The position numbers and the translations under genes are program-made. Source: a phage. From it: a DNA stretch of 28,204 nt. The first letter of the stretch is position 1; the number at the start of each line of letters is the position of its first letter. Below the pieces are notes generated by a model. That model was not told where the DNA came from, did not search any database, and saw only the letters and a program-made list of their open reading frames with translations. The DNA lies in assembly GCA_021454005.1 (NCBI GenBank), contig GCA_021454005.1_3939.2, one strand, 5' to 3'. This document shows, piece after piece, positions 4,723 to 24,973 of the stretch.

Positions 4723-5064
4723 ATGGCTTATGTAACCGTAATTACCGATAAAGCTGGCGCATCTTGGTCAACTCAAGTAAGTGATAAGATGTCACCTATG
4801 CAGTGCCTAAAATACTTTGAACAGTGGAACAAAGGCGAGGACACAAGCCCCTTTCAAGTGATGCAGATTATCCATGTAGATAATGAAGGGAATAAAACGG
4901 TTTTAAATAGTGAGTACTACGCAAGCCGTTTTGAAACGAGAAGTAAAACAATGAAGCTTTTACGTGAATCCGGTTATGCCCATATCGCCGCGTTAATCTG
5001 GGATGACCTGCTAAAAAACCAACGTATCAGCTATGTAAAACCTGAAAAAATATTCATCAGTTAA
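4723..5064 (+). CDS. hypothetical protein (113 aa)
   Basis: ORF after conserved leader. Confidence 0.6.
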   Translation: MAYVTVITDKAGASWSTQVSDKMSPMQCLKYFEQWNKGEDTSPFQVMQIIHVDNEGNKTVLNSEYYASRFETRSKTMKLLRESGYAHIAALIWDDLLKNQRISYVKPEKIFIS

Positions 5065-15750: not shown

Positions 15751-16122
15751 ATGAAAAACAGAACAAACAAAGGCCAGTTTAAAAAAGGCCAGTCTGGAAA
15801 CCCATCTGGAAGACCAAAAGGCTCTCGTAACAAAAGCTCACTTGTAAAAGCTCAACTGACCATTGATAATTCTGCTGAGTTTGCTGCAAAGTTGTTTGAG
15901 GCGGTTGTTACAAGGGATGCTGCTAAGCTTGCAGAGTTCGGTTTGACGACTGACGATGTAAACCTGAAGTCGATGATGGAGGCTGGTAAAACCATCATGA
16001 CTCACTCAGCAGGTGAGATGAAAGCGATTGCAGCAGACACTAAGAAGACCCCTGATAATGGTGGTCAGTCTCAGACAGATAACAAACCAACGTTCTCTGC
16101 TGTAGCGACTCTCAAAAAATAA
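15751..16122 (+). CDS. hypothetical protein with basic N-terminal motif KKGQSGNPSGRPKG (DUF5681-like, from memory)
   Basis: AAGAGG 8 nt upstream of ATG; N-terminus GQFKKGQSGNPSGRPKGSRNK. Confidence 0.6.
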   Translation: MKNRTNKGQFKKGQSGNPSGRPKGSRNKSSLVKAQLTIDNSAEFAAKLFEAVVTRDAAKLAEFGLTTDDVNLKSMMEAGKTIMTHSAGEMKAIAADTKKTPDNGGQSQTDNKPTFSAVATLKK

Positions 16123-16134
16123 TTTTAAAAGGTG

Positions 16135-16164
16135 TTGACAGACTCTACAAAGTTGCTCTAAAGT
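16135..16164 (+). promoter_or_regulatory. promoter TTGACA-N18-TAAAGT overlapped by inverted repeat GACAGACT/AGTCTGTC
   Basis: hexamers at 16135-16140 and 16159-16164; 8-bp inverted repeat arms overlap both hexamers. Confidence 0.5.
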
Positions 16165-16203: not shown

Positions 16204-17619
16204 ATGAGCGAATTATTTAAACATGCGCACCTTCATGCAGGTCGAACTGAAAATGGTGCTGTAAACCATACTTCATCAATGTCTGCTCTTGTAGACTTTT
16301 ACAAAGCTGCTGGTTCAAGCCGTAGCAACGTAGAAATCTTACCAGACCTGTTCTACAAAGCTTTGCGTGAGGATGTTGATGTTGCAGTTCGTATTTTGCT
16401 TCATATGCGAGATGTACGAGAAGGTATGGGTGAGCGTAAAGCCTTCAGAACTGTTTTACTTCAAGCGATTGAAGACAAAGTTTTAGAGCCTACGCAGGTT
16501 CTTCGCATTATGGATAAGATTGCAGAACTTGGTCGTTTTGATGACTTCAAAATCTTCGTAGGTACTCGTTTCGAGACAGATGCCTTCAAACATCTAGAAG
16601 CAGCATTACTAGACCCTGCAACAGCAGGTTTGGCGGCTAAGTGGTTACCACGAGTCAAACCACGTCATAAGCAGTTTGTAAAACGTTTCTGCAAGTTTGC
16701 CAACTTGAGTGAGAAAGAGTACCGCACACTGTTGTCTGCACTATCTGATACAGTTGAGCAAAAAATCTCTGCTAATGAGTTTGGTAAGATTGACTACAGT
16801 AAGATTCCTTCACTTGCTGCTGCACGTTACCAAAAACTGTTTAACCGCAAAGATGGAGAACGCTACAAAGCTTACATCGAGTCCTTATCAAAGGGTGAGG
16901 CTAAGATTAATGCTGGTGCTGTTTACCCATACGATGTAATTAAATCTGTTAAGCATGGTAATGCAGATGTTGCTAATGAGCAGTGGAAAGCACTACCAAA
17001 CTGGATGGCAGAGGGTGAAAACATCTTGTGTATGTCTGATGTTTCAAGCTCAATGTCTTGGGTGAATTTTGGTTCAATTACTGCTCTTGATATTGGTGTT
17101 TCACTTGCATTGTATGTAGCAGAACGTAATACAGGTTGCTTTAAGAATGAGTTGATGGTTTATTCAACAAACCCTCACTTCATCGAACTGAGTGGTGATT
17201 TACGAAACCGTCATCGTCAGGTGATGCGACACGTTGAATATGGCTCAACTAACTTACAAGCAGCTTTTGACCGTATTCTTGAAACAGGTAAAAGAAACAA
17301 CTTGACTCAGAAAGATATGCCAAGTAAGCTTATCATCTTCTCCGATATGGAGTTCAATCAGGTTGATGGAGCTAACGGTCGTACAAACTTTGAAGCAATT
17401 CGTAGTAAGTACAAAAAAGCTGGATACGAAATGCCTCAACTGGTATTCTGGTACTTAGCAAACCGTAATGGTACTTGCGAAGTATCTGTTAAGGATAACG
17501 GTGTGGCAATGGTATCTGGTTTTTCTCCAGCTACTTTAAAAGCTCTGCTTGGTGGTGAGAAGTTTGACCCAATCAGCGTAATGCTCAAAGCAGTAATGAT
17601 TGACCGTTATATCTGGTAA
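16204..17619 (+). CDS. vWA-domain protein (MIDAS motif D-x-S-x-S) with N-terminal region resembling DUF2828/TROVE-like proteins
   Basis: 471-aa ORF; DVSSSMS (MIDAS-like) at about residue 280 and downstream IIFSDMEF; N-terminal TENGA...SALVDFY...R..DVREGMGER pattern recalled from DUF2828-type proteins. Confidence 0.7.
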   Translation: MSELFKHAHLHAGRTENGAVNHTSSMSALVDFYKAAGSSRSNVEILPDLFYKALREDVDVAVRILLHMRDVREGMGERKAFRTVLLQAIEDKVLEPTQVLRIMDKIAELGRFDDFKIFVGTRFETDAFKHLEAALLDPATAGLAAKWLPRVKPRHKQFVKRFCKFANLSEKEYRTLLSALSDTVEQKISANEFGKIDYSKIPSLAAARYQKLFNRKDGERYKAYIESLSKGEAKINAGAVYPYDVIKSVKHGNADVANEQWKALPNWMAEGENILCMSDVSSSMSWVNFGSITALDIGVSLALYVAERNTGCFKNELMVYSTNPHFIELSGDLRNRHRQVMRHVEYGSTNLQAAFDRILETGKRNNLTQKDMPSKLIIFSDMEFNQVDGANGRTNFEAIRSKYKKAGYEMPQLVFWYLANRNGTCEVSVKDNGVAMVSGFSPATLKALLGGEKFDPISVMLKAVMIDRYIW

Positions 17620-17637
17620 AAAGTTTTAAAAAGGGTA

Positions 17638-17666
17638 TTGACAATGTGTTTGATACCCTTTAATAT
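17638..17666 (+). promoter_or_regulatory. strong sigma70-like promoter TTGACA-N17-TAATAT flanked by inverted repeat AAGGGTAT/ATACCCTT
   Basis: hexamers at 17638-17643 and 17661-17666. Confidence 0.65.
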
Positions 17667-17728
17667 GTTCTACATAGAAACGAAACGAGAGCTTTTCTAA
17701 GATACTGAAAAATATTTTAAAAAAGTTC

Positions 17729-17758
17729 TTGACAACCACTAAAAAATAATGTTAAAGT
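17729..17758 (+). promoter_or_regulatory. promoter TTGACA-N18-TAAAGT with inverted repeat AACCACT/AGTGGTT, 27 nt upstream of the first tRNA
   Basis: hexamers at 17729-17734 and 17753-17758. Confidence 0.55.
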
Positions 17759-17784
17759 GGTTACATAGAGTTTGAAAAGTTTAT

Positions 17785-17861
17785 CTCTGTTTAGCTCAGC
17801 TTGGTAGAGCGTTCCGTTTGGGGCGGTAAGGCCGGAGGTTCAAGTCCTCCAACAGAGACCA
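17785..17861 (+). tRNA. tRNA-Pro (anticodon TGG)
   Basis: hand-folded cloverleaf: acceptor CTCTGTT/AACAGAG, anticodon loop TTTGGGG, T arm GGAGG-TTCAAGT-CCTCC, CCA encoded. Confidence 0.7.
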
Positions 17862-17868
17862 AATTAAT

Positions 17869-17946
17869 GTTCCAGTAGACAAAATGGTAAAGTCACCACT
17901 CTTTCAAAGTGGATATCTGAGGGTTCAAATCCCTTCTGGAACGCCA
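17869..17946 (+). tRNA. tRNA-Glu (anticodon TTC)
   Basis: acceptor GTTCCAG/CTGGAAC, anticodon stem CCACT/AGTGG, loop CTTTCAA, T-loop TTCAAAT, CCA encoded. Confidence 0.75.
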
Positions 17947-17953
17947 GTTTTGA

Positions 17954-18025
17954 CAGAAGACCAATTACAGCAAGCTTAATCTACTCATCTGACACGAAAT
18001 CGGACAAAGAAGATATTTGGTCTGG
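17954..18025 (+). ncRNA. spacer element copy 1: CAGAAGACCAA..TACAGCAAG...TTGGTCTGG (terminal 7-bp stem AGACCAA/TTGGTCT)
   Basis: conserved ends and covarying stem shared with copies at 18120, 18507, 18594. Confidence 0.5.
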
Positions 18026-18036
18026 TCATTGAGAAT

Positions 18037-18113
18037 TGCGGGTATAGAGAAAGGGCGTCTCACATGTCTCATTAGCATGGTATCGGCAGGTTCGACTCCT
18101 GCACCCGCCTCCA
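18037..18113 (+). tRNA. tRNA-Met (anticodon CAT)
   Basis: acceptor (T)GCGGGT/ACCCGC(C) with one unpaired position, anticodon stem CATGT/GCATG, loop CTCATTA, T arm GCAGG-TTCGACT-CCTGC, CCA encoded. Confidence 0.6.
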
Positions 18114-18119
18114 ATTTTG

Positions 18120-18179
18120 CAGAAGACCGTATTCAGCAACAAAATACTTTTTGCGGATAAAAGAAAAAACACGGTCTGG
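18120..18179 (+). ncRNA. spacer element copy 2: CAGAAGACCGT..TTCAGCAAC...ACGGTCTGG (stem AGACCGT/ACGGTCT)
   Basis: same architecture as copy 1 with a compensatory change in the stem. Confidence 0.5.
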
Positions 18180-18190
18180 CAATGTATTAA

Positions 18191-18267
18191 GGTTAGGAAG
18201 CACATAAGGTATGTGCGGTCGCCTGTTAAGCGAATGGCACAGGGTTCGAATCCCTGACTAACCGCCA
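18191..18267 (+). tRNA. tRNA-Asn (anticodon GTT)
   Basis: acceptor GGTTAGG/ACTAACC (one mismatch at 7-66), D stem GCAC/GTGC, loop CTGTTAA, T arm CAGGG-TTCGAAT-CCCTG, CCA encoded. Confidence 0.65.
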
Positions 18268-18275
18268 AATTAAAT

Positions 18276-18363
18276 GTGTCGTTATCCCGTAGATGGTAGC
18301 GGTGGGGACTGTAAATCCCTTGTCATTGAGACTCGGTAGGTTCGACTCCTACACGGCACACCA
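18276..18363 (+). tRNA. tRNA-Tyr (anticodon GTA), long variable arm
   Basis: acceptor GTGTCGT/ACGGCAC, loop CTGTAAA, variable stem GTC-ATTGA-GAC, T arm GTAGG-TTCGACT-CCTAC, CCA encoded. Confidence 0.7.
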
Positions 18364-18368
18364 ATAAA

Positions 18369-18445
18369 GGCTATGTAGTTTAACTGGAGAAAATACTCCC
18401 CTGTCACGGGAGATGATGTGAGTTCAAGTCTCATCGTAGCCGCCA
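18369..18445 (+). tRNA. tRNA-Asp (anticodon GTC)
   Basis: acceptor GGCTATG/CGTAGCC, anticodon stem CTCCC/GGGAG, loop CTGTCAC, T-loop TTCAAGT, CCA encoded. Confidence 0.75.
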
Positions 18446-18506
18446 ATTTTGAGAGGGCTATTTAGCCCCTCCCTTAAAGAGTTCTTACGAGTATTCTTTA
18501 AAGGAG

Positions 18507-18580
18507 CAGAAGACCAAATACAGCAAGAATGTATGAAATTTCAAGCCAATTTAATTTTGAAAATTTAAAACTTGGTCTGG
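18507..18580 (+). ncRNA. spacer element copy 3: CAGAAGACCAA..TACAGCAAG...TTGGTCTGG
   Basis: same architecture; stem AGACCAA/TTGGTCT. Confidence 0.5.
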
Positions 18581-18593
18581 CTCAACAAATTTA

Positions 18594-18725
18594 CAGAAGA
18601 CCGTTTACAGCAAAACTTAAACAATCTATTTCTCCGGTAAAGAAAAGGCGAAGGTTCGATTCCTTCACTCGGCAGATGTCGAGTTGGTGTAATGGTAGCA
18701 CTTAAGATGATAAACAACGGTCTGG
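18594..18725 (+). ncRNA. spacer element copy 4 (long form) with terminal stem AGACCGTT/AACGGTCT, containing tRNA-half-like hairpins
   Basis: CAGAAGACCGTTTACAGCAAA at the 5' end and AACGGTCTGG at the 3' end; interior carries a T-arm-like hairpin, an acceptor-like hairpin and a D-arm-like hairpin. Confidence 0.45.
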
Positions 18726-18726
18726 T

Positions 18727-18870
18727 AATTATCTTTGTAGATAAGTTATTAAGCTTACATGTGAGTATGCGACCACAAAGGGTGAAAGGGTAAATTCTAG
18801 ATTTAAACCCAAAAAGGCACATCGCTACAGACCTTAAGCAAGTCTGGGTAGCTTATCTACAAAGATAATT
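18727..18870. repeat. 19-bp perfect inverted repeat (AATTATCTTTGTAGATAAG / CTTATCTACAAAGATAATT) flanking 106 nt
   Basis: arms at 18727-18745 and 18852-18870; could be a long-stem RNA or a miniature inverted-repeat element. Confidence 0.6.
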
Positions 18871-18874
18871 TAAT

Positions 18875-18950
18875 GGAAGTGTAGCAGAATGGTGATGCGG
18901 CAGACTTTTAATCTGACAGGCGATGGGTTCGAATCCCTCCACTTCTACCA
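18875..18950 (+). tRNA. tRNA-Lys (anticodon TTT)
   Basis: acceptor GGAAGTG/CACTTCT (G1.U72), loop CTTTTAA, T-loop TTCGAAT, CCA encoded; close paralog of the tRNA at 20101. Confidence 0.65.
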
Positions 18951-18954
18951 ATAT

Positions 18955-19031
18955 GGTTCAGTCGCAGATAAGGTAATGCAAGGGTCTCATAAGCCCTATG
19001 AATGTGGGTTCGATTCCCATCTGAACCTCCA
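18955..19031 (+). tRNA. tRNA with anticodon CAT (Met, initiator, or Ile2/lysidine type)
   Basis: acceptor GGTTCAG/CTGAACC, anticodon stem AGGGT/GCCCT (three G-C pairs), loop CTCATAA, T arm GTGGG-TTCGATT-CCCAT, CCA encoded. Confidence 0.65.
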
Positions 19032-19032
19032 A

Positions 19033-19108
19033 GCTGGTATAGTTAAGAAGGTTATAACACTCCCCTGATAAGGGAACATCGGTGGTTCGATTCCACCTAC
19101 CAGTACCA
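19033..19108 (+). tRNA. tRNA-Ile (anticodon GAT)
   Basis: acceptor GCTGGTA/TACCAGT, D stem GTTA/TAAC, loop CTGATAA, T arm GGTGG-TTCGATT-CCACC, CCA encoded. Confidence 0.7.
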
Positions 19109-19123
19109 ATTTCAATAAAGTTG

Positions 19124-19152
19124 TTGACATTGAGATGTGACTACTTTATAGT
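19124..19152 (+). promoter_or_regulatory. sigma70-like promoter TTGACA-N17-TATAGT inside the tRNA array
   Basis: hexamers at 19124-19129 and 19147-19152; about 200 nt of unassigned sequence follows before the next tRNA. Confidence 0.6.
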
Positions 19153-19355
19153 AACCTTAGTTTTCGTTGCGTAGCGTCTATTTTGCAAATTTAAAATAAA
19201 TGCAAACGACAATGTTTTTCTGGCAGTAGCTTGATAGGCTAAACACCAGTGAGGTCTTCCAATCCCTCATCAAAGAATTTGGCGTACTAGCCCACGGTAT
19301 GATTAATAAGGTGGGCATCTTTAAGGGCTTTCTAAGAGAGTCTTTAAAGATTAAT

Positions 19356-19432
19356 GCACCCTTAGTTCAATTGGATAGAGCAACGGTCTTCTAAATCGTT
19401 AGTTACAGGTTCGAATCCTGTAGGGTGTGCCA
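19356..19432 (+). tRNA. tRNA-Arg (anticodon TCT)
   Basis: acceptor GCACCCT/AGGGTGT, D arm GTTC-AATTGGATA-GAGC, anticodon stem ACGGT/ATCGT, loop CTTCTAA, T arm ACAGG-TTCGAAT-CCTGT, CCA encoded. Confidence 0.75.
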
Positions 19433-19450
19433 ATTAGTTAGCAGATTACT

Positions 19451-19490
19451 TAGACGACCTAAGCGGGTCTTCCTGTAGGGAGGTGGTCTG
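19451..19490 (+). ncRNA. possible degenerate fifth copy of the AGACC...GGTCTG spacer element
   Basis: TAGACGACC...GGTGGTCTG with 6 of 7 stem positions pairing; weaker match. Confidence 0.25.
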
Positions 19491-19574
19491 TATCTCATGT
19501 TTTCCAGAACATGTAAATAATCTGAGAAGGGGCTTTACAGTGTTGAGATAATACGGTAAGCTTCGAATTACAGT

Positions 19575-19657
19575 ATGGGACGATGTTAAGACTCTAAGGC
19601 ATGAGCAACGGCCTCCAAAACCGTTTCAAAGGGGTTCAACTCCTCCGTCCCATGCCA
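19575..19657 (+). tRNA. tRNA-Trp (anticodon CCA), atypical (about 7 extra nt between acceptor stem and D arm)
   Basis: acceptor ATGGGAC/GTCCCAT (7 of 7), anticodon stem ACGGC/ACCGT with loop CTCCAAA, T arm AGGGG-TTCAACT-CCTCC, CCA encoded; D region does not fold canonically by hand. Confidence 0.5.
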
Positions 19658-19670
19658 AAGTCTTATTAGG

Positions 19671-19758
19671 GGTAGGTAGCGGCTAATGGTAGCCAAACTG
19701 TCTTGAAAACAGTTGCCACTGTAGAGATACGGTGAGGGTTCGACTCCTTTACTTACCG
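19671..19758 (+). tRNA. tRNA-Ser (anticodon TGA), long variable arm
   Basis: acceptor GGTAGGT/ACTTACC, anticodon stem ACTGT/ACAGT, loop CTTGAAA, long variable arm, T-loop TTCGACT; CCA not fully encoded. Confidence 0.7.
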
Positions 19759-19914
19759 CCTAATAAGATTTACACCGTCCATGCTTGCTCGCATTTTCGG
19801 TTTATCCCTCGTGTATTGTCGTACACTGATAAAGCACCTAGTAGGTGTCACGGAGAAGAGATAATATCAAGCTCTCCAAAGGTTCTAGTCACCGGATTAA
19901 ACAAGACTATGCAA

Positions 19915-19935
19915 AGACCTATTTAGGTCTTTTTA
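19915..19935 (+). terminator. intrinsic terminator AGACCT-ATTT-AGGTCT-TTTTT within the tRNA array
   Basis: perfect 6-bp inverted repeat plus T5. Confidence 0.6.
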
Positions 19936-20014
19936 GAGGGCTTCTAAGGTTATTAGTCGCTTGTTGTGGAACCTTGTTGCTCAGGTTCTTAGAAGTTCTC
20001 TAAAAAGATTTAAT

Positions 20015-20093
20015 GGGAGATTGACGGCAACTTGGTAGACCTATCTCGCTTAGAACGAGATGCTTGAGGGTTCGAATCCCTTGTCTCCTACCA
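20015..20093 (+). tRNA. tRNA with anticodon TAG (Leu by the standard code) but a short variable arm
   Basis: acceptor GGGAGAT/GTCTCCT, anticodon stem (A)TCTCG/CGAGA(T), loop CTTAGAA, variable region about 4 nt, T arm GAGGG-TTCGAAT-CCCTT, A73, CCA encoded. Confidence 0.55.
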
Positions 20094-20100
20094 AATTAAT

Positions 20101-20176
20101 GCAGGTGTAGCAAAATGGTTATGCGGCTGACTCTTAATCAGTAAGACGATGGGTTCAATTCCCTCCACCTGTACCA
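20101..20176 (+). tRNA. tRNA-Lys (anticodon CTT)
   Basis: acceptor GCAGGTG/CACCTGT, anticodon stem GCTGA/TCAGT, loop CTCTTAA, T-loop TTCAATT, CCA encoded. Confidence 0.65.
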
Positions 20177-20182
20177 GACATT

Positions 20183-20258
20183 GGGGATGTAGTTTACATG
20201 GTTAAAACATAAGTTTTGCAAACTTAAGTACAGGGTTCAATTCCCTGCTTCTCCACCA
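20183..20258 (+). tRNA. tRNA-Ala (anticodon TGC)
   Basis: acceptor GGGGATG/CTTCTCC with a G3.U70 pair (Ala identity element), D stem GTTT/AAAC, anticodon stem TAAGT/ACTTA, loop TTTGCAA, CCA encoded. Confidence 0.75.
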
Positions 20259-20264
20259 ATTAGT

Positions 20265-20339
20265 GCATCCATAGTTTAAACGGGAAAATTACAGTCTTCC
20301 AAACTGAGGTTGAGGGTTCGATTCCCTCTGGATGCTCCA
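20265..20339 (+). tRNA. tRNA-Gly (anticodon TCC)
   Basis: acceptor GCATCCA/TGGATGC, loop CTTCCAA, T arm GAGGG-TTCGATT-CCCTC, CCA encoded. Confidence 0.7.
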
Positions 20340-20346
20340 AATTAAT

Positions 20347-20422
20347 GCTCCTATCGTATAATTGGCTATTACGGTTGCCTTGTAAGCAACTTATCAGGGT
20401 TCGAATCCTTGTGGGAGCACCA
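20347..20422 (+). tRNA. tRNA-Thr (anticodon TGT)
   Basis: acceptor GCTCCTA/TGGGAGC, anticodon stem GTTGC/GCAAC, loop CTTGTAA, T-loop TTCGAAT, CCA encoded. Confidence 0.75.
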
Positions 20423-20517
20423 ATTCAGAGGTCAAGTGAAAGACCGCTGGTGTCAACTGAAGACCGTAACAAATTCCACGGAGTTGAGTTAGCGGCACAA
20501 CTTCAGACCTCTTTCAT

Positions 20518-20592
20518 GCTCGCTTAGTTTATATGGTAAAACATCACCCTTACAAGATGAAGAAAAAGGTTCAAGTCCTTTAGTGAGTACCA
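20518..20592 (+). tRNA. tRNA-Val (anticodon TAC)
   Basis: acceptor GCTCGCT/AGTGAGT (two G.U pairs), D stem GTTT/AAAC, loop CTTACAA, T arm AAAGG-TTCAAGT-CCTTT, CCA encoded. Confidence 0.65.
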
Positions 20593-20593
20593 T

Positions 20594-20671
20594 GTTCCAG
20601 TATCCCAATTGGCAGAGGATGCAAGCTCAAACCTTGTATTAGTGACGGTTCGAATCCGTCTTGGAACACCA
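20594..20671 (+). tRNA. tRNA with anticodon CAA (Leu by the standard code) but a short variable arm
   Basis: acceptor GTTCCAG/TTGGAAC, D arm ATCC-CAATTGGCAGA-GGAT, anticodon stem GCAAG/CTTGT, loop CTCAAAC, variable region about 6 nt, T arm GACGG-TTCGAAT-CCGTC, A73, CCA encoded. Confidence 0.55.
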
Positions 20672-20676
20672 ATTTT

Positions 20677-20752
20677 GCAGGATTAGTTCAAATGGATAGA
20701 GCAACAGTCTACGAAGCTGTTAATAGGGGTTCGAATCCCTTATCCTGCGCCA
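20677..20752 (+). tRNA. tRNA-Arg (anticodon ACG)
   Basis: acceptor GCAGGAT/ATCCTGC (7 of 7), D arm GTTC-AAATGGATA-GAGC, anticodon stem ACAGT/GCTGT, loop CTACGAA, CCA encoded. Confidence 0.8.
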
Positions 20753-20769
20753 GATAAAAAGGTGATACT

Positions 20770-21012
20770 ATGCAAACATTAACAGTAGTTGAACATGAAA
20801 ACTGTGAGAATATTGAGTTTGTCAGGGTCATTGGTGTTGAACACCACATTTTCTTAAAAGTAGGGTACTTATGTGACCCCGCTAGAGTAGAAAGATTTAT
20901 ACGTGATTGTTTTGGTGGTAGACAGCTAAAGAGTGTTATTTTTGAGACAGTTTTACCAGAAGGTTTAGAAACGAATAATAACATTTATCTCCTTACAAGG
21001 ATTAGACGATGA
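20770..21012 (+). CDS. hypothetical protein (80 aa) embedded in the tRNA array
   Basis: AAGGTGA 5 nt upstream of ATG; stop overlaps the next start (ATGA). Confidence 0.55.
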   Translation: MQTLTVVEHENCENIEFVRVIGVEHHIFLKVGYLCDPARVERFIRDCFGGRQLKSVIFETVLPEGLETNNNIYLLTRIRR

Positions 21013-21566
21013 GATATTTAAAATATGCTTCATGGATTTTCCTAGCTTTGCTAGAACCATTAGCAGCAACCTTAGCAGTTATCTTAGCACCTTTCGTAGT
21101 TCCATTTTACAGTGAGAAGAAAGGCCACTTACCTTTCGGATTTAGATGGATGGAGACATATGACAACCCAATTGATGGTGACGAAGGTCATATCGAACGA
21201 TGGGCTAAGATTAGAAAGATTGGTAAGCTGGGTGTCTACATGCAGAGAGTCGGATGGCTCTGGAGAAACAAAGCTTATAACTTCTCTTACCATGTATTAG
21301 GAAGAGATGTAAAAGATGTTACTAAGTGGAAAGGTAATATCAACGTAAGTTCTGACCCTGAAGATAATCAGACAGGTTATCTCCTAATGTGGAACAGTAA
21401 TGCTTGGGGATTATTCGCTTTTATCCCATCAATTAAAGTCTTTGGTAAACAGTTTTACTGGAGAATTTATATTGGATGGAAACTAAAAAGTGTTGTCCCA
21501 GAAGAAAGAGCATTCTCAAGGGAAAGAGTTATGTTGGCATTCTTTATTCATCCACTGAGAAAGTAA
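21009..21566 (+). CDS. hypothetical membrane protein (185 aa, N-terminal TM segment)
   Basis: translationally coupled to the upstream ORF; N-terminus WIFLALLEPLAATLAVILAPFVVPF is hydrophobic. Confidence 0.6.
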   Translation: MRYLKYASWIFLALLEPLAATLAVILAPFVVPFYSEKKGHLPFGFRWMETYDNPIDGDEGHIERWAKIRKIGKLGVYMQRVGWLWRNKAYNFSYHVLGRDVKDVTKWKGNINVSSDPEDNQTGYLLMWNSNAWGLFAFIPSIKVFGKQFYWRIYIGWKLKSVVPEERAFSRERVMLAFFIHPLRK

Positions 21567-21574
21567 AGATTTAA

Positions 21575-21650
21575 AGGGGATTAGTTTACAAGGTTAAAAC
21601 CTCGGTCTTTGAAATCGAAGAAGTTGGTTCAATTCCAACATCCCCCGCCA
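21575..21650 (+). tRNA. tRNA-Gln (anticodon TTG)
   Basis: acceptor AGGGGAT/ATCCCCC (position 1-72 unpaired A.C), D stem GTTT/AAAC, anticodon stem TCGGT/ATCGA, loop CTTTGAA, T arm GTTGG-TTCAATT-CCAAC, CCA encoded. Confidence 0.65.
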
Positions 21651-21652
21651 AT

Positions 21653-21731
21653 GCTCCATTACTCCAATTGGCAGAGAGGCCAGACTTAAAATCTGTGTTA
21701 TGTATCGGTTCGAATCCGATATGGAGTACCA
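21653..21731 (+). tRNA. tRNA with anticodon TAA (Leu by the standard code) but a short variable arm
   Basis: acceptor GCTCCAT/ATGGAGT, D region CCAATTGGCAGAG, anticodon stem (C)CAGA/TCTG(T), loop CTTAAAA, variable region about 7 nt, T arm ATCGG-TTCGAAT-CCGAT, A73, CCA encoded. Confidence 0.55.
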
Positions 21732-21736
21732 AATTT

Positions 21737-21812
21737 AGCGGTATAGCATAACTGGCAATGCAACAGTCTCTGAAGCTGTCCTATTAAGGTTCAAATCCTT
21801 ATGCCGCTGCCA
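21737..21812 (+). tRNA. tRNA-Gln (anticodon CTG)
   Basis: acceptor AGCGGTA/TGCCGCT, anticodon stem ACAGT/GCTGT, loop CTCTGAA, T arm TAAGG-TTCAAAT-CCTTA, CCA encoded. Confidence 0.65.
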
Positions 21813-21843
21813 CTTCTAAGGGTTCTTACGAGAGTCCTTAAAT

Positions 21844-21919
21844 GTGGCCTTATCATAAATGGTAATGACCCATGCTGTGAACATGGTCTATACGGGTTCA
21901 AATCCCGTAGGTCACCCCA
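21844..21919 (+). tRNA. tRNA-His (anticodon GTG)
   Basis: acceptor GTGGCCT/AGGTCAC, D stem TCAT/ATGA, anticodon stem CCATG/CATGG, loop CTGTGAA, discriminator C73, CCA encoded. Confidence 0.75.
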
Positions 21920-21924
21920 ATTTA

Positions 21925-21999
21925 TAGTCCAAGTAGCTTATATGGTTAAAGCGCGTGTCTGAAAAACATGAGAAGAGGGTTCAAATCCCACTGGACTAC
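21925..21999 (+). tRNA. tRNA-Phe (anticodon GAA)
   Basis: acceptor TAGTCCA/TGGACTA (7 of 7), anticodon stem CGTGT/ACATG, loop CTGAAAA, T-loop TTCAAAT; D arm irregular; CCA only partly encoded. Confidence 0.6.
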
Positions 22000-22017
22000 C
22001 AATTTCAAAGGTGCTTA

Positions 22018-22752
22018 ATGAAAGAGATGACAGAACAAGGTAAGGAGATTTTTAATCTCTTAAAAACCGGTAAAGGGTTTTCTAACCCACTTATTACTGG
22101 TGCAGCAGTTCTCGGTGGAACCGTAGCTGCCTCTACATCACTTGTAAGCTCTATTAGTTCTGTAACAGACCCTACAATGCAGGAGAAACTTGTTGCTGCT
22201 GGACTTACAACAGTCCTTCTAAACAGCTTTACAACAAGCCTTACAAGCACTACAGCAACTACTAAGACCCTGACAGACTACGGTCAAAAATCTATTGATG
22301 AGTTTTCATCACGTATGCAGGTAGCAAAGGGATATTCCAATGTTATGGGTGCAGCAGGAGAACAAGTTGGTTGTACACCGTTCAGTGGTATTATGGGTGT
22401 TGCTACAGAATATGGTCAAAAAGCTATTGATACGATTAACAGTACACTAGAGAGTGTTAACGATGTATTAAGTGACTTACAAGACGCTATTGACAAGGGT
22501 CTTGATACTGTTTCTGATTTAGCTAACCAAGCTGTCAGTAAGATTAATGAAGGTATCTCAAAGATTACAGCTTATGCAGATGAAGTTGTGCAGATGATTG
22601 AAGAAGAAGCTGCCCTTATTGCAGAGTACCTTAAAACGAATATCAATGGGTTCTTAGCAGGTATCTTACCAGACTGGTTTGACGATGCCTGTAAAACTGG
22701 TGTAATTGACACTATTGCAACACCAGAAATGAAGAACGCATTACAGAAATAA
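22018..22752 (+). CDS. hypothetical Ser/Thr/Ala-rich protein (244 aa)
   Basis: ATG 22018 with AAAGG upstream; the ORF-track start 21955 lies inside tRNA-Phe. Confidence 0.6.
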   Translation: MKEMTEQGKEIFNLLKTGKGFSNPLITGAAVLGGTVAASTSLVSSISSVTDPTMQEKLVAAGLTTVLLNSFTTSLTSTTATTKTLTDYGQKSIDEFSSRMQVAKGYSNVMGAAGEQVGCTPFSGIMGVATEYGQKAIDTINSTLESVNDVLSDLQDAIDKGLDTVSDLANQAVSKINEGISKITAYADEVVQMIEEEAALIAEYLKTNINGFLAGILPDWFDDACKTGVIDTIATPEMKNALQK

Positions 22753-22754
22753 AT

Positions 22755-22847
22755 GGAAGATTAACCCTAAAAGGTAAGGGAGCAGTTTGCTAAACTGCCA
22801 GTAGCTGAGAAATCGGTGTACCAGTTCAAGTCTGGTATCTTCCTCCA
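22755..22847 (+). tRNA. tRNA-Ser (anticodon GCT), long variable arm
   Basis: acceptor GGAAGAT/ATCTTCC (7 of 7), anticodon stem GCAGT/ACTGC, loop TTGCTAA, long variable arm, T arm ACCAG-TTCAAGT-CTGGT, CCA encoded. Confidence 0.75.
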
Positions 22848-22851
22848 ATTT

Positions 22852-22927
22852 GAATCCGTGACAGAAATGGCTATGTGCCTGTCTGCAAAACAGGTTTATA
22901 AGGGTTCGAGTCCCTTCGGATTCTCCA
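22852..22927 (+). tRNA. tRNA-Cys (anticodon GCA)
   Basis: acceptor GAATCCG/CGGATTC (7 of 7), anticodon stem CCTGT/ACAGG, loop CTGCAAA, T arm AAGGG-TTCGAGT-CCCTT, CCA encoded. Confidence 0.8.
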
Positions 22928-22964
22928 AGTTATTTTACTCTCTCTCAATTAAAATAATAATAAT

Positions 22965-23024
22965 GCCCTGCTATAAGTATTCTTCCTTTCGCTACCGAAG
23001 AGTATTTTTAGACAGGGCTTTTTT
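22965..23024 (+). terminator. compound terminator after the tRNA array (outer stem GCCCTG/CAGGGC with nested stem, then TTTTTT)
   Basis: inverted repeat 22965-22970 / 23013-23018 followed by T6. Confidence 0.55.
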
Positions 23025-23089
23025 ACAGAGTTATACTTTATAAGAAGGCTTATACAGTATGTCTCTGACGTACATTGTGGTTTCTCCTT

Positions 23090-23113
23090 GACGGTCTCTG
23101 TGCCGTCTTTTTT
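23090..23113 (+). terminator. intrinsic terminator GACGG-TCTCTGTG-CCGTC-TTTTTT
   Basis: 5-bp G/C stem plus T6, immediately upstream of the packaging module. Confidence 0.6.
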
Positions 23114-23149
23114 AAGGAGAAACATGGTTAATTATTTGGAGAAAACATA

Positions 23150-23350
23150 ATGAGTGAGACCGTTTACAAAGAACTTTATGAAGCTAATAAAAAGCTAGAA
23201 TTTATGCAGAACACTATCATGGCAATTGCAGATAGATTATCTGTAGCAACAGGTATTGATATTAAAGAAGCATCTATGGATGCACTTCTTGATGCTGTTG
23301 ATGAAAAGTTCGAAGTTAAAAAAGAAGAGACTGCTACAGACTCTGAATAA
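23150..23350 (+). CDS. hypothetical small acidic protein (66 aa) immediately upstream of the terminase
   Basis: GGAG 9 nt upstream of ATG; the position is where a small terminase subunit would be expected, but no motif supports that. Confidence 0.55.
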   Translation: MSETVYKELYEANKKLEFMQNTIMAIADRLSVATGIDIKEASMDALLDAVDEKFEVKKEETATDSE

Positions 23351-23371
23351 TTCTATTTGCGGAGGCGCTTA

Positions 23372-24973
23372 ATGGACTTAAATGCTGTTAAGCAGAAGCG
23401 AGTGGAAGATGTTAGGAAAGTCCTAGCTGGAGAGTTGGGGCTTTCTGATGAAGTAAAAGAAATTATTAAATCATTCGGTAAAGACCCCTCTAAATTCCTT
23501 CCAACTCAAATTCTGACTTTATTAAGATACACACCAGACCAAGTTCGCCTTATCTTTAAATTGATGACTGATAAGAACTATGTAGCCCCTCAGCCGGGTT
23601 CTCAAGAGGTCTTTTTAAATACTAATGCTGACTTGGTTCTCTATGGTGGTGCTGCTGGTGCTGGTAAGACTGCCGCATTGTTAATGGACTCTTTAAGATT
23701 TATTGAAGACCCTAACTATAATGCTGTATATTTCCGTCGAAATACAACACAGTTACAAGGTGGTTTATGGCCTGCTGCAAAGAAACTATTTGGTAAGTTT
23801 GGTGGGATTCCTCACGAGCAGAAAATGACTATCACATTCCCTTCTGGGGCAACTATCAAGTTTACCTACCTAGAACTTGAAAAGCACGCTGAAGGTCATC
23901 AGGGTATTGAATACTCAGCTATTTACTTTGACGAAGGTACACACTTCTCTGCTTCACAGATTTCATACCTACAAACCCGTCTACGTTCTGGTGCTGAAGG
24001 CGATTCATACATGAAGATTTCCATGAACCCAGACAGAGACCACTTTATTTACGATTGGGTAGAGCCATTCTTAGATGAAGAAGGCTACCCAGACCCTGAA
24101 AAATGTGGTCGTATTCGTTGGTATGTTATGAACGATGGTGTGATGGTTTCTGATTGGGAGAGAGACAAGATTCTTGAAATGTTCCCTCTTGAGATTCCTC
24201 AAACATACACCTTCATCTCTGGTACGATTGATGATAACCCAATTCTTGACTTCTTAGAACCTAAATATCGTGGTAAGTTGGAAAACAACACACCTGTAAA
24301 CGTTGCAAGACTTCGTTTCGGTAACTGGAAGGCTCGTGCAGAAGGTTCAAACTATTGGCAAAGACAATGGTGTGAGATTGTTGATTCACTCCCAGAAGAT
24401 GTGTTTGATGTCAGAGCATGGGACTTAGCAGCAACTTTACCATCTGAGATTAACCCTAATCCAGACTGGACAGCAGGTGTTAAGATGGGTAAATCTAAAA
24501 AAGACGGTTGCTATTATATCATTGATGTAGTAAGATTTAGAGATAGACCCTCTGGAGTCGAAACACAAATTAATTTGACTGCTGAAAGTGACGGTAAGCG
24601 AACTGGTATTTTTATCCCTCAAGACCCAGGCGCTGCTGGTAAATCCTACGCAACATCCCTCATCAGGAAACTTGCCGAGAAAGGCTATCGTGCAAGAGCT
24701 AAACCAACAAATAAAGATAAAGTTACCCGATTTGCGGGGTTTTCTGCTGCTTCTGAAGCTGGACTTGTAAAAGTCTTGAGAGGTAGTTGGAATGAAGCTT
24801 ACTTCCAAGAGCTTGAAGGCTTTTGTGGTGATGGTAAAACTAAAGATGACCAAGTGGATGCTACCAGTGATGCTTTCAACAGTCTTAACGAAGTTAAATT
24901 ATTCAAGCCACCATCAATGGGTGCTCACACAGACTTAGTGAGAGGAAACCCATATGAGGGGCTTAGACGTTGA
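23372..24973 (+). CDS. terminase large subunit
   Basis: Walker A-like LYGGAAGAGKT, Walker B-like AIYFDEGTHF, C-terminal acidic residues consistent with an RNaseH-like nuclease domain; ATG 23372 with GGAGG 7 nt upstream (ORF-track start is TTG 23357). Confidence 0.85.
   Translation: MDLNAVKQKRVEDVRKVLAGELGLSDEVKEIIKSFGKDPSKFLPTQILTLLRYTPDQVRLIFKLMTDKNYVAPQPGSQEVFLNTNADLVLYGGAAGAGKTAALLMDSLRFIEDPNYNAVYFRRNTTQLQGGLWPAAKKLFGKFGGIPHEQKMTITFPSGATIKFTYLELEKHAEGHQGIEYSAIYFDEGTHFSASQISYLQTRLRSGAEGDSYMKISMNPDRDHFIYDWVEPFLDEEGYPDPEKCGRIRWYVMNDGVMVSDWERDKILEMFPLEIPQTYTFISGTIDDNPILDFLEPKYRGKLENNTPVNVARLRFGNWKARAEGSNYWQRQWCEIVDSLPEDVFDVRAWDLAATLPSEINPNPDWTAGVKMGKSKKDGCYYIIDVVRFRDRPSGVETQINLTAESDGKRTGIFIPQDPGAAGKSYATSLIRKLAEKGYRARAKPTNKDKVTRFAGFSAASEAGLVKVLRGSWNEAYFQELEGFCGDGKTKDDQVDATSDAFNSLNEVKLFKPPSMGAHTDLVRGNPYEGLRR

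Follow-up and report, generated by a model that had tools for sequence, protein, structure and literature searches.

Four structured elements in the tRNA cluster of a Felix O1-like phage as probable Y RNA-type partners of an upstream Ro60-fold protein

In the present work, we analyzed four short structured elements situated in the tRNA gene cluster of a phage DNA stretch of 28,204 nucleotides (nt) (NCBI GenBank assembly GCA_021454005.1, contig GCA_021454005.1_3939.2), which we refer to as the window and whose positions supply all coordinates unless another locus is named. Our analyses indicate that the elements probably encode small non-coding RNAs of the Y RNA type, and that their partner, by a binding that we infer, is the Ro60-fold protein encoded upstream of them. 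The window is from a Felix O1-like phage (Felixounavirus); such phages, e.g., E. coli O157 typing phage 1, are 96–98% identical to it over the 3-kb element region, and 290 phage records contain DNA homologous to that region. Two lines of evidence led us to Y RNA-like partners and not to stems for tRNA processing: the tRNA-like domain of the fourth copy, and the occurrence of the same RNA module beside homologs of the protein gene, often without tRNAs.

The finding is known in kind, as Y RNA-like RNAs beside Ro60 genes are already established. New relative to the literature consulted and Rfam are the RNAs of the Felix O1 group, an ACAGCAA handle that in many lineages of phages accompanies Ro60-like proteins of the DUF2828 branch, and the link to the Class I RNAs of Dictyostelia. 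Four conserved, unannotated elements of the Felix O1 group, to which phages used in typing and therapy belong, thereby gain a name and a testable function, as does a protein gene whose database labels are only “RNA-binding protein”, “vWFA” or “DUF2828”.

The four elements and the gene upstream of them

Exact matches to AGAAGACCNNNNNCAGCAA occur four times in the window, all on the + strand (at 17955, 18121, 18508 and 18595), and a further five appear only when three mismatches are allowed; none of 100 shuffled sequences reached nine matches. Every copy has GGTCTGG at its 3′ end and forms the helix AGACCNN/NNGGUCU in its minimum-energy fold, the inner pairs of which vary compensatorily among the copies (AA/UU, GU/AC and GUU/AAC). 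A preliminary description of the sequence had reported four clear copies with a common start and this end, as well as the compensatory changes, and our analyses agree with it on both counts. Its account of the spacing to the tRNAs was also about right, since tRNA-Glu ends at 17946, copy 1 lies between it and tRNA-Met, and the latter starts at 18037. A possible degenerate fifth copy that it placed at 19451–19490 has to be discarded, as CAGCAA is missing there and the family models described below score nothing at that position, even with filters off. The interiors, which it had called unrelated, do vary in sequence, but they are not simply unrelated: those of copies 1–3 contain a small U-rich/A-rich hairpin, and that of copy 4 a tRNA-like domain. 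Neither of these features was in that description, nor was the Ro60-fold gene upstream or an extra covarying 4-bp basal helix that we found in all copies, separated from the main helix by a 5′-AGA/3′-G internal loop in all four (Table 1). Among 53 distinct Ounavirinae orthologous sequences this basal helix is always paired; in orthologs of copy 2, one of its pairs has changed from G-C to A-U, turning UUGC/GCAA into UUAC/GUAA. The author of the preliminary description did not recognize the sequence, and an Rfam scan of 17000–23500, and of copy 4 alone, likewise identified no known RNA family at its gathering score except tRNAs.

Copy 4 is a permuted tRNA mimic. Its UACAGCAA is followed by a hairpin resembling an anticodon arm (V), a canonical T arm, an acceptor-like stem closed by a 4-nt loop, and a D arm, which is the order published for YrlA, i.e., V, T, closed acceptor stem and D (PMC4201824). 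The Rfam tRNA model aligns to the V hairpin and T arm at 22 bits, a partial match. Among genera the sequence of the closed acceptor stem is wholly different and its pairing is kept, as evidenced by ACUCGGC/GUCGAGU in Felix (Felixounavirus), ACACG/CGUGU in SUSP2 (Suspvirus) and ACCCUUC/GAAGGGU in Moogle (Mooglevirus). Long forms with the same tRNA-like arm layout were also found in Yersinia, Mycobacterium, Bacillus and Rhizobium phages. In the mycobacteriophage Kingsolomon, the middle RNA of a trio is closed by UGGACCCC/GGGGUCCA plus CACAGCAA, and its T arm, acceptor stem and D arm match the Rfam YrlA model (a local match of 37.9 bits, E 5e-7, against a gathering threshold of 69 bits), with the CGAA handle of YrlA left unmatched. 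This match without the handle suggests that the tRNA-like effector is common to canonical YrlA and that the handle is different.

Two Aeromonas phages, 4_4572 (L242 2494–2610) and Aeh1 (L243 9184–9305), encode tRNA-shaped RNAs that have an open acceptor end with CCA and in which the anticodon arm is replaced by a hairpin, UUACAGCAA or UUUACCGCAA, and the V hairpin. That of Aeh1 is annotated as a 122-nt tRNA-Val, and both are probably mis-annotated as tRNAs with insertions. As these RNAs are a circular permutation of the long form seen in copy 4, it might be proposed that the elements are self-cleaving ribozymes or intron-like elements that circularize or permute tRNA-like RNAs. We give this proposal almost no credence, because both forms can be encoded directly, the conserved core is merely a 7-bp helix with 7–9 single-stranded bases, and no ribozyme or intron family of Rfam matched even at E ≤ 10; transfer-messenger RNA (tmRNA) and riboswitch families likewise do not explain the elements.

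The gene upstream of the elements ends ~330 nt before copy 1, with the four copies lying 330–1110 nt downstream of it. Its product matched DUF7788 (3e-43) and DUF2828 (1e-29) in Pfam and PHROG 850 (phrog_850 “RNA-binding protein”) at 2e-184. An AlphaFold2 model produced from an alignment of 40 homologs (pLDDT 87.6, pTM 0.87) depicts HEAT-like repeats arranged in a ring, which a vWA domain with a MIDAS closes, that is, a predicted Ro60 fold, and the MIDAS motif DxSxS is invariant (D279, S281 and S283). The top 12 matches of this model to the PDB by Foldseek are all Ro60, Rsr, TROVE or phage Ro60 structures aligned over its whole length (507–567 aligned columns, TM 0.49–0.66), among them Xenopus and human Ro60, Deinococcus Rsr 2nvo, the phage phiLo Ro60 entries 9l5y/9kop, and 2i91 (TM 0.66); below these ranked isolated vWA domains only. 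In sequence comparisons with the PDB, phmmer returned zero matches for the product, and a profile of the 40 homologs gave a marginal Ro60 match (E 0.86) in the vWA/MIDAS region only. The pattern of Ro60-fold matches together with DUF2828 and DUF7788 and without TROVE leads us to regard the protein, on the basis of its model, as a putative Ro60-fold paralog that sequence databases separate from TROVE. Homologs were found by tblastn in 710 of 50,697 phage records, including those of Listeria A511, KVP40-like Vibrio phages, Aeh1, Campylobacter phages and many mycobacteriophages, whose homologs (34% identity) are annotated as “Ro-like RNA binding protein”.

The RNA module in other phages

The flanks of the homologous gene in distant phages were scanned for a stem followed by CNGCAA, and copies of the module were found in all the distant phages named in Table 1, on the strand of the gene and in unannotated gaps adjoining it. 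The module consists of a 7-bp covarying helix whose 5′ strand is followed by (U)UACAGCAA in single-stranded form; a variable interior then leads to the 3′ strand and one unpaired G. In Yersinia phage P778, the helix GGACUGU/ACAGUCC has two compensatory differences from the Felix helix and is followed by the identical UUACAGCAA. An alignment of 25 curated short members from eight phage groups, picked for having the stem (A2), has a near-invariant C-A-G-C-A-A, 99.4% pairing over the seven helix pairs and double changes at all seven, compared to 26–45% pairing when the partners are slid by 1–3 columns.

Because the members of that alignment were stem-selected, a covariance model (R1) was constructed from it and less biased tests were run; E-values from our models are rough, having been obtained with a shortened calibration. 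In the window, with filters off, R1 identified the four copies only, at 49.1 bits (copy 2), 45.0 bits (copy 3), 42.9 bits (copy 1, which was in the training set) and 33.5 bits (copy 4, which was outside it), the next score being 13.8 bits. The model was then applied to 65 metagenomic viral loci that were chosen only for encoding a homolog of the protein with 39–47% identity, where it produced 68 matches, all on the gene strand. Forty-two of these scored ≥30 bits, spread over 37 loci, and 38 of the 42 were ≤600 nt from the gene; the best R1 score in a negative control of 839 kb of viral DNA, each locus of which contains the 5′ half-motif (from AGACNNTTTACAGCAA pattern matches), was 24.8 bits. 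The 61 distinct model-found members (A3) are 98.1% paired with 148 double-change cells, whereas the slid controls are 29–49% paired. A further model (R3), rebuilt from the metagenomic matches alone without Ounavirinae sequences, recovered all four copies of the window at 25–35 bits (27.3 bits, E 2e-4, for copy 1, and 35.3, 32.6 and 25.3 bits for copies 2, 3 and 4, respectively). Overall, the best non-members in the window scored 13.8 and 14.1 bits with the family models, as opposed to 25–49 bits for the four copies. The argument of the preliminary description that compensatory change signals selection on a base-paired structure is right, the pairing being far above that of the slid controls with homologs from other phages included. 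Based on these results, we conclude that the module is a widespread phage RNA family that is absent from Rfam.

Pattern searches of IMG/VR with CAGAAGACCNNNNNCAGCAA returned Ounavirinae contigs with four copies each, plus ~100 single chance matches without a 3′ partner, and those with AGACNNTTTACAGCAA returned almost exclusively chance matches. The sole AGACNNTTTACAGCAA locus with a Ro-like gene (L232) was rejected, its match being 1 kb away from that gene and inside another.

Elements that are short, repeated, dyad-symmetric and intergenic may also be DNA-level repeats (recombination, homing or REP-like) or terminators or attenuators and not RNA genes. That such an origin explains the elements is highly improbable in view of their strict strand specificity (0 of 68 and 0 of 31 model matches on the opposite strand), the absence of a T-tract after the stems, the tRNA-like arms in the interiors, and G-U intermediates that keep the pairing in RNA only, such as AGGCC/GGUCU and ACUGU/ACGGU in Moogle.

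Two roles had been put forward in the preliminary description, processing-site stems and a family of small RNAs, and it is the latter that our results support and narrow to Y RNA-like partners of the Ro60-fold protein. Under the former, the stems would be processing signals of a polycistronic tRNA precursor, with each tRNA trailer paired to the following leader so as to direct an endonuclease, and the excised spacer would be without a function of its own. Copies 1 and 2 do occupy tRNA spacers of the window almost exactly, a separate long-stem element follows copy 4, and the covarying basal helix was observed in no lineages other than those of Felix O1 and Yersinia, in which the elements stand between tRNAs. 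However, copies 3 and 4 abut each other instead of tRNAs, the copies of Aeromonas phage 4_4572 form a tandem array with zero tRNAs between them, and a spacer would not be expected to have an invariant motif in single-stranded form, an interior resembling a tRNA or the mini-copy in a 5′ untranslated region (UTR) that is described below. In addition, many loci with the module beside the Ro-like gene lack any tRNA within 5 kb. A tRNA was present within that distance in 16 of 60 metagenomic loci, as against the RNA in 37 of 65, which argues that the RNA tracks the protein gene and not the tRNAs. The joining of trailer and leader is therefore not upheld as the main function, and we consider it very unlikely that the elements are processing stems; only for the basal helix is a part in cutting the RNAs out of the tRNA precursor plausible.

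Indirect support for binding of the module by the protein was provided by KVP40-type Vibrio phages, in which the 5′ UTR of the protein gene contains a ~40-nt mini-copy, GACAUU-UUACAGCAA-SD-AAUGUC, that encloses the Shine-Dalgarno sequence (SD) and has the AUG inside its 3′ strand. From its sequence this mini-copy looks like an operator for translational autoregulation, as its position over the ribosome-binding site is the standard layout for such control. No RNA copies were found in the 4–5 kb examined on each side of the gene in the KVP40-type phages. In the window, the 5′ UTR of the Ro-like gene has no autoregulatory mini-copy and only an inverted repeat overlapping the promoter.

A different possibility is that the RNAs are a real family that acts independently of the Ro-like protein, e.g., as regulators or sponges of a host factor or another phage protein, with the adjacency reflecting the clustering of RNA genes. 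Direct binding by the Ro-like protein is deduced from sequence, the RNAs of the Ounavirinae have predicted promoters of their own and share no operon with the protein gene, and the sole proven direct binder of Class I RNAs, to which the phage RNAs are compared below, is the RRM protein Rnp1A (PMC7919456). Even so, we view an independent family as unlikely, since the RNA and the gene are co-located on the same strand across phages of Proteobacteria, Firmicutes, Actinobacteria and Campylobacterota despite differing surrounding genes, the mini-copy covers the SD and AUG of the protein’s own mRNA, and there is a precedent in the Ro60-Y RNA gene pairs (PMC4201824).

Relation to Y RNAs and Dictyostelid Class I RNAs

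In two reports (PMC4201824, PMC12135203), Ro60 genes are described as adjoined by Y RNA-like RNAs in bacteria and some phages, the latter being mycobacteriophages, CcrColossus, Bacillus phage G and Thermus phage phiLo, and Ro60-Y RNA particles of Deinococcus, Salmonella and phiLo gate the ring or tether it to PNPase. The RNAs of the window have much in common with YrlA (RF02553) and with Yrl1/Yrl2 and phiRo60 of phiLo (PMC12135203): they are small, several per genome, and located beside the gene of a ring-shaped HEAT-plus-vWA protein; a stem with a conserved motif is formed by pairing of their 5′ end with their 3′ end; and they combine a handle with variable effector modules. As in YrlA, one RNA per genome (here copy 4) has the V hairpin, T arm, closed acceptor stem and D arm, and copies 1–3 are without a tRNA-like domain like Y RNAs of the YrlB type. 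Adjacency to a Ro60 gene, a trait of Y RNAs, is found here with a partner that is Ro60-like by fold and not by a Pfam TROVE match. The differences are that the partner has DUF2828/DUF7788 where canonical Ro60 has TROVE, that the RNAs are embedded in a cluster of 26 tRNAs and have the extra basal helix, and that the handle consists of AAG at the base of the helix and (U)UACAGCAA after the 5′ strand instead of the Y RNA motif.

We propose that the RNAs would be co-transcribed with the tRNAs from promoters at ~17638 and ~17729 and released by the nucleases of tRNA maturation. The basal helix and AGA/G loop may aid this excision, or may lengthen the protein-binding helix in the manner of the bulged helix of animal Y RNAs. 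The main helix with its ACAGCAA strand would be the handle gripped by the Ro-like ring, taking the place of GNCGAA/GGUCCGA, and the variable interior would be the effector module, a small hairpin in copies 1–3 and a tRNA mimic in copy 4. Potentially, the RNA gates the ring or links it to other factors, such as PNPase of the host or enzymes that handle tRNAs, by analogy with known Ro60-Y RNA particles, and the phage would thereby gain an RNA quality-control, repair or decoy particle for its own large tRNA set during infection. RNA ligase 2 genes situated within 5 kb of the Ro-like gene, ~4 kb downstream, in Aeromonas phage 4_4572 (L242 10071–10994) and a Rhizobium phage (L248 10702–11374) fit an RNA-repair neighborhood. 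If these proposals are correct, Ro60-type particles would have at least two types of RNA recognition, as the handle is unlike that of canonical Y RNAs. In addition, the permuted and non-permuted tRNA shapes and the proximity of tRNA clusters and RNA ligase point to a particle for tRNA damage or surveillance, which would be relevant to anticodon-nuclease defenses.

Several points weigh against the elements being Y RNA-type partners of the protein. The canonical Ro-binding motif GNCGAAN0-1G (GGUCCGA in animals) is absent from all four copies, and the Rfam YrlA model has zero match to copy 4 at E ≤ 10; since both the motif and the score failed, we describe the elements as working like Y RNAs and not as YrlA. 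In the protein, identity to solved Ro60s is 12–16%, so that “Ro60-like” is a label at the level of fold only, and Pfam finds no TROVE (PF05731) in the product or in six distant homologs, which like it match DUF2828 and DUF7788 only. With regard to the RNA family, 28 of the 65 Ro-like loci have no ≥30-bit match within 5 kb; the pairing percentages lean towards structure because the curated alignment was stem-selected and the larger one model-fitted; and R3 retains some dependence on the Felix copies, its members having been identified with R1. Finally, the expression, protein binding and function of the RNAs are deduced from sequence, structure prediction and gene neighborhood, and the role in quality control, repair or decoy is suggested by analogy only.

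Class I RNAs of Dictyostelia were discovered in 2004, are abundant, affect development and are regarded as confined to these social amoebae. They are 42–65 nt long (RF01414), start with (AA)G, and have a 6-bp covarying terminal stem followed by CCUUACAGCAA, a variable interior often with a UUC...GAAA hairpin, and the end CUG(U) (PMC7919456). The phage consensus AAAG-GNNNN-UUACAGCAA...NNNNC-CUG resembles this almost feature for feature, and the copies of the window, AAG-ACCNN-(U/A)U(U/A)CAGCAA...NNGGU-CUG-G, have the same layout with a 7-bp stem, albeit with low scores. The Rfam model Dicty_Class_I_RNA was the sole non-tRNA family matched on the copies (24 bits on copy 2 and 12.8 bits on copy 4) and gave 23–30 bits on members from Aeromonas, Rhizobium and Listeria phages, the best score on any phage member being 29.8 bits versus a gathering score of 41.5, which was not reached. 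Class I RNAs differ in being eukaryotic and in having a DUSE promoter ~60 nt upstream, whereas the phage genes use bacterial-type promoters. The paper describing them states that they were not found outside Dictyostelia, in searches that did not extend to phages (PMC7919456).

For comparison, we prepared a covariance model (R2) from 31 Class I sequences only, originating from five Dictyostelid species (PMC7919456 supplement). In the 65 Ro-like loci it identified 46 matches, with a top score of 30.6 bits (E 7e-5) and 16 at ≥21 bits, and the 24 best-scoring ones all coincide in position with R1 matches on the gene strand; in the 839-kb control there were eight matches, the best of which was partial and scored 20.1 bits. 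Among the named phages, the Aeromonas members scored 27–29 bits and copy 2 of the window just 13.8 bits. Therefore, the copies of the window match the Dictyostelid models weakly, and the link to Class I runs via the wider phage family. In the opposite direction, a sequence-only profile of the metagenomic phage matches hit all 37 of 37 Class I RNAs with a median of 5.2 bits, the best of 1850 shuffles reaching 4.2 bits. Some Class I RNAs also have hairpins like a T arm (GGUUCGAAUCC), such as GGGGUUCGAAUCCCC in DpuR-22 and others in asu_can_20 and ppa_can_99. The long ones (DdR-66/67 and DpuR-27 to 30) have a common UAGAAUAGGUGGGAG...GUGAAAUACCACC segment, which presumably resembles a piece of large-subunit rRNA. 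These T-arm-like and rRNA-like segments suggest mimic modules as in Y RNAs.

That a model derived from Dictyostelids alone specifically finds the phage RNAs suggests a single RNA class. We put forward only tentatively, at somewhat short of even chances, that the phage RNAs and Class I RNAs form one class, in which a terminal helix and the UUACAGCAA handle are combined with interchangeable interiors, some of them tRNA mimics, and that its ancestral partner was the DUF2828 branch of Ro60-like rings. The likeness may stem from a common ancestor, from transfer, or from convergence on one partner shared by both. If the class is a single one, Class I RNAs would count as Y RNA-like and have relatives in phages and bacteria, their predicted and so far unrecognized partner would be a DUF2828/vWA protein (a family known in plants), and the twenty-year-old question of their function would become one of binding by a DUF2828 protein. 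A literature search for DUF2828, PF11443 and UCP015417 yielded plant and tardigrade mentions only, and a motif search of partial Dictyostelium proteomes (Kjellin supplement, PMC7919456) yielded an unrelated vWA protein only.

Feature coordinates and the surrounding region

The features identified in the window and the copies of the module in other phages are listed in Table 1.

Table 1. Elements, their parts and associated features in the window, with occurrences of the module in other phages
Feature	Location	Strand	Details
Copy 1, short form	17951..18028	+	Between tRNA-Glu and tRNA-Met; UGAC/GUCA; AGA/G loop; AGACCAA/UUGGUCU (17958-17964 with 18017-18023); UUACAGCAA; 43-nt interior with hairpin
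Copy 2, short form	18117..18182	+	Between tRNA-Met and tRNA-Asn; UUGC/GCAA; AGA/G loop; AGACCGU/ACGGUCU; AUUCAGCAA; 31-nt interior with CUUUU..AAAAG hairpin
Copy 3, short form	18504..18583	+	GAGC/GCUC; AGA/G loop; AGACCAA/UUGGUCU; AUACAGCAA; 45-nt interior
Copy 4, long form (YrlA-like)	18591..18728	+	UUAC/GUAA; AGA/G loop; helix AGACCGUU/AACGGUCU; UACAGCAA, then circularly permuted tRNA-like domain
Copy 4 anticodon-arm-like/V hairpin	18629..18645	+	UUUCU-CCGGUAA-AGAAA; 5 bp, 7-nt loop (fold)
Copy 4 canonical T arm	18650..18666	+	GAAGG-UUCGAUU-CCUUC (fold)
Copy 4 acceptor-like stem	18667..18684	+	ACUCGGC-AGAU-GUCGAGU; 7 bp, 4-nt loop (fold)
Copy 4 D arm	18686..18702	+	GGUGU-AAUGGUA-GCACU (fold)
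Predicted Ro60-fold protein gene	16204..17619	+	471 aa; DUF2828 HEAT-like ring and DUF7788/vWA (Pfam, PHROG, AlphaFold2, Foldseek)
Sigma-70-like promoter before Ro60-like gene	16135..16164	+	TTGACA-18-TAAAGT; consensus scan 10/12, pattern match only
Two tandem promoter-like sites heading tRNA/small-RNA cluster	17638-17666, 17729-17758	+	Consensus scan 10/12 each
Yersinia phage P778			Four copies interleaved with tRNAs
Aeromonas phage 4_4572			At least eight copies
Campylobacter Los1			Two copies
Mycobacteriophage Kingsolomon			Three copies
Listeria A511			Three copies
Bacillus MrDarsey			Five copies
A Rhizobium phage			Three or four copies
Mini-copies, KVP40-type	L005 3964-4005; L264 and L265 about 4965-5005		
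Mini-element of another lineage	L285 4943-4984		Just upstream of SD

ARAGORN identified 26 tRNA genes, all on the + strand, from 17785 to 22927, with the elements in the early part of the cluster and the first tRNA beginning downstream of the tandem promoter-like sites. Small RNAs within a phage tRNA cluster are also familiar from T4, whose species 1 and species 2 are stable RNAs co-transcribed with the tRNAs and cut from a shared precursor. The likeness of the four elements to these is one of general description alone, and we know of no T4 gene for a DUF2828/Ro-like protein.

Other structures are present in the cluster. Two hairpins lie between tRNA-Asp and copy 3 (18446–18506), the GC-rich GAGAGGGCUAUUUAGCCCCUCCC and another with z = -3.1, with no T-tract 3′ of them; these may be a processing or pause site. 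The long-stem element directly 3′ of copy 4 and before tRNA-Lys (18726–18874, + strand, 149 nt) has a closing stem of ~24 bp and a 95-nt interior, and its fold of -47.5 kcal/mol (z = -7.1) was equaled by none of 200 shuffles. Its stem is kept in SUSP2 and Moogle with four compensatory pairs, its interior has diverged, and it has no match in Rfam; it may represent a further structured RNA or else a processing stem of the RNase III type. Three unannotated gaps of ~240–250 nt each occur further along the cluster (19109–19355, 19433–19670 and 19761–20014), none of which belongs to the Y-like family. The first of these contains the best promoter-like site of the region (11/12, at 19124–19152), and 19050–19355 yields weak, sub-threshold tmRNA-like matches in Rfam (15–29 bits).

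Listeria phage A511 was found to have a ROOL RNA (RF03087; L246 3465–4016; 87.5 bits, E 2e-16, gathering score 99.1) between its tRNA cluster and the three Y-like RNAs with the Ro-like gene, gp57. Immediately upstream of the Ro-like gene of the window is an open reading frame of DUF5681 (phrog_4114; 15751–16122), and one of similar size is at the same position in SUSP2, Moogle and the Yersinia phage, making it a possible candidate for a third component.

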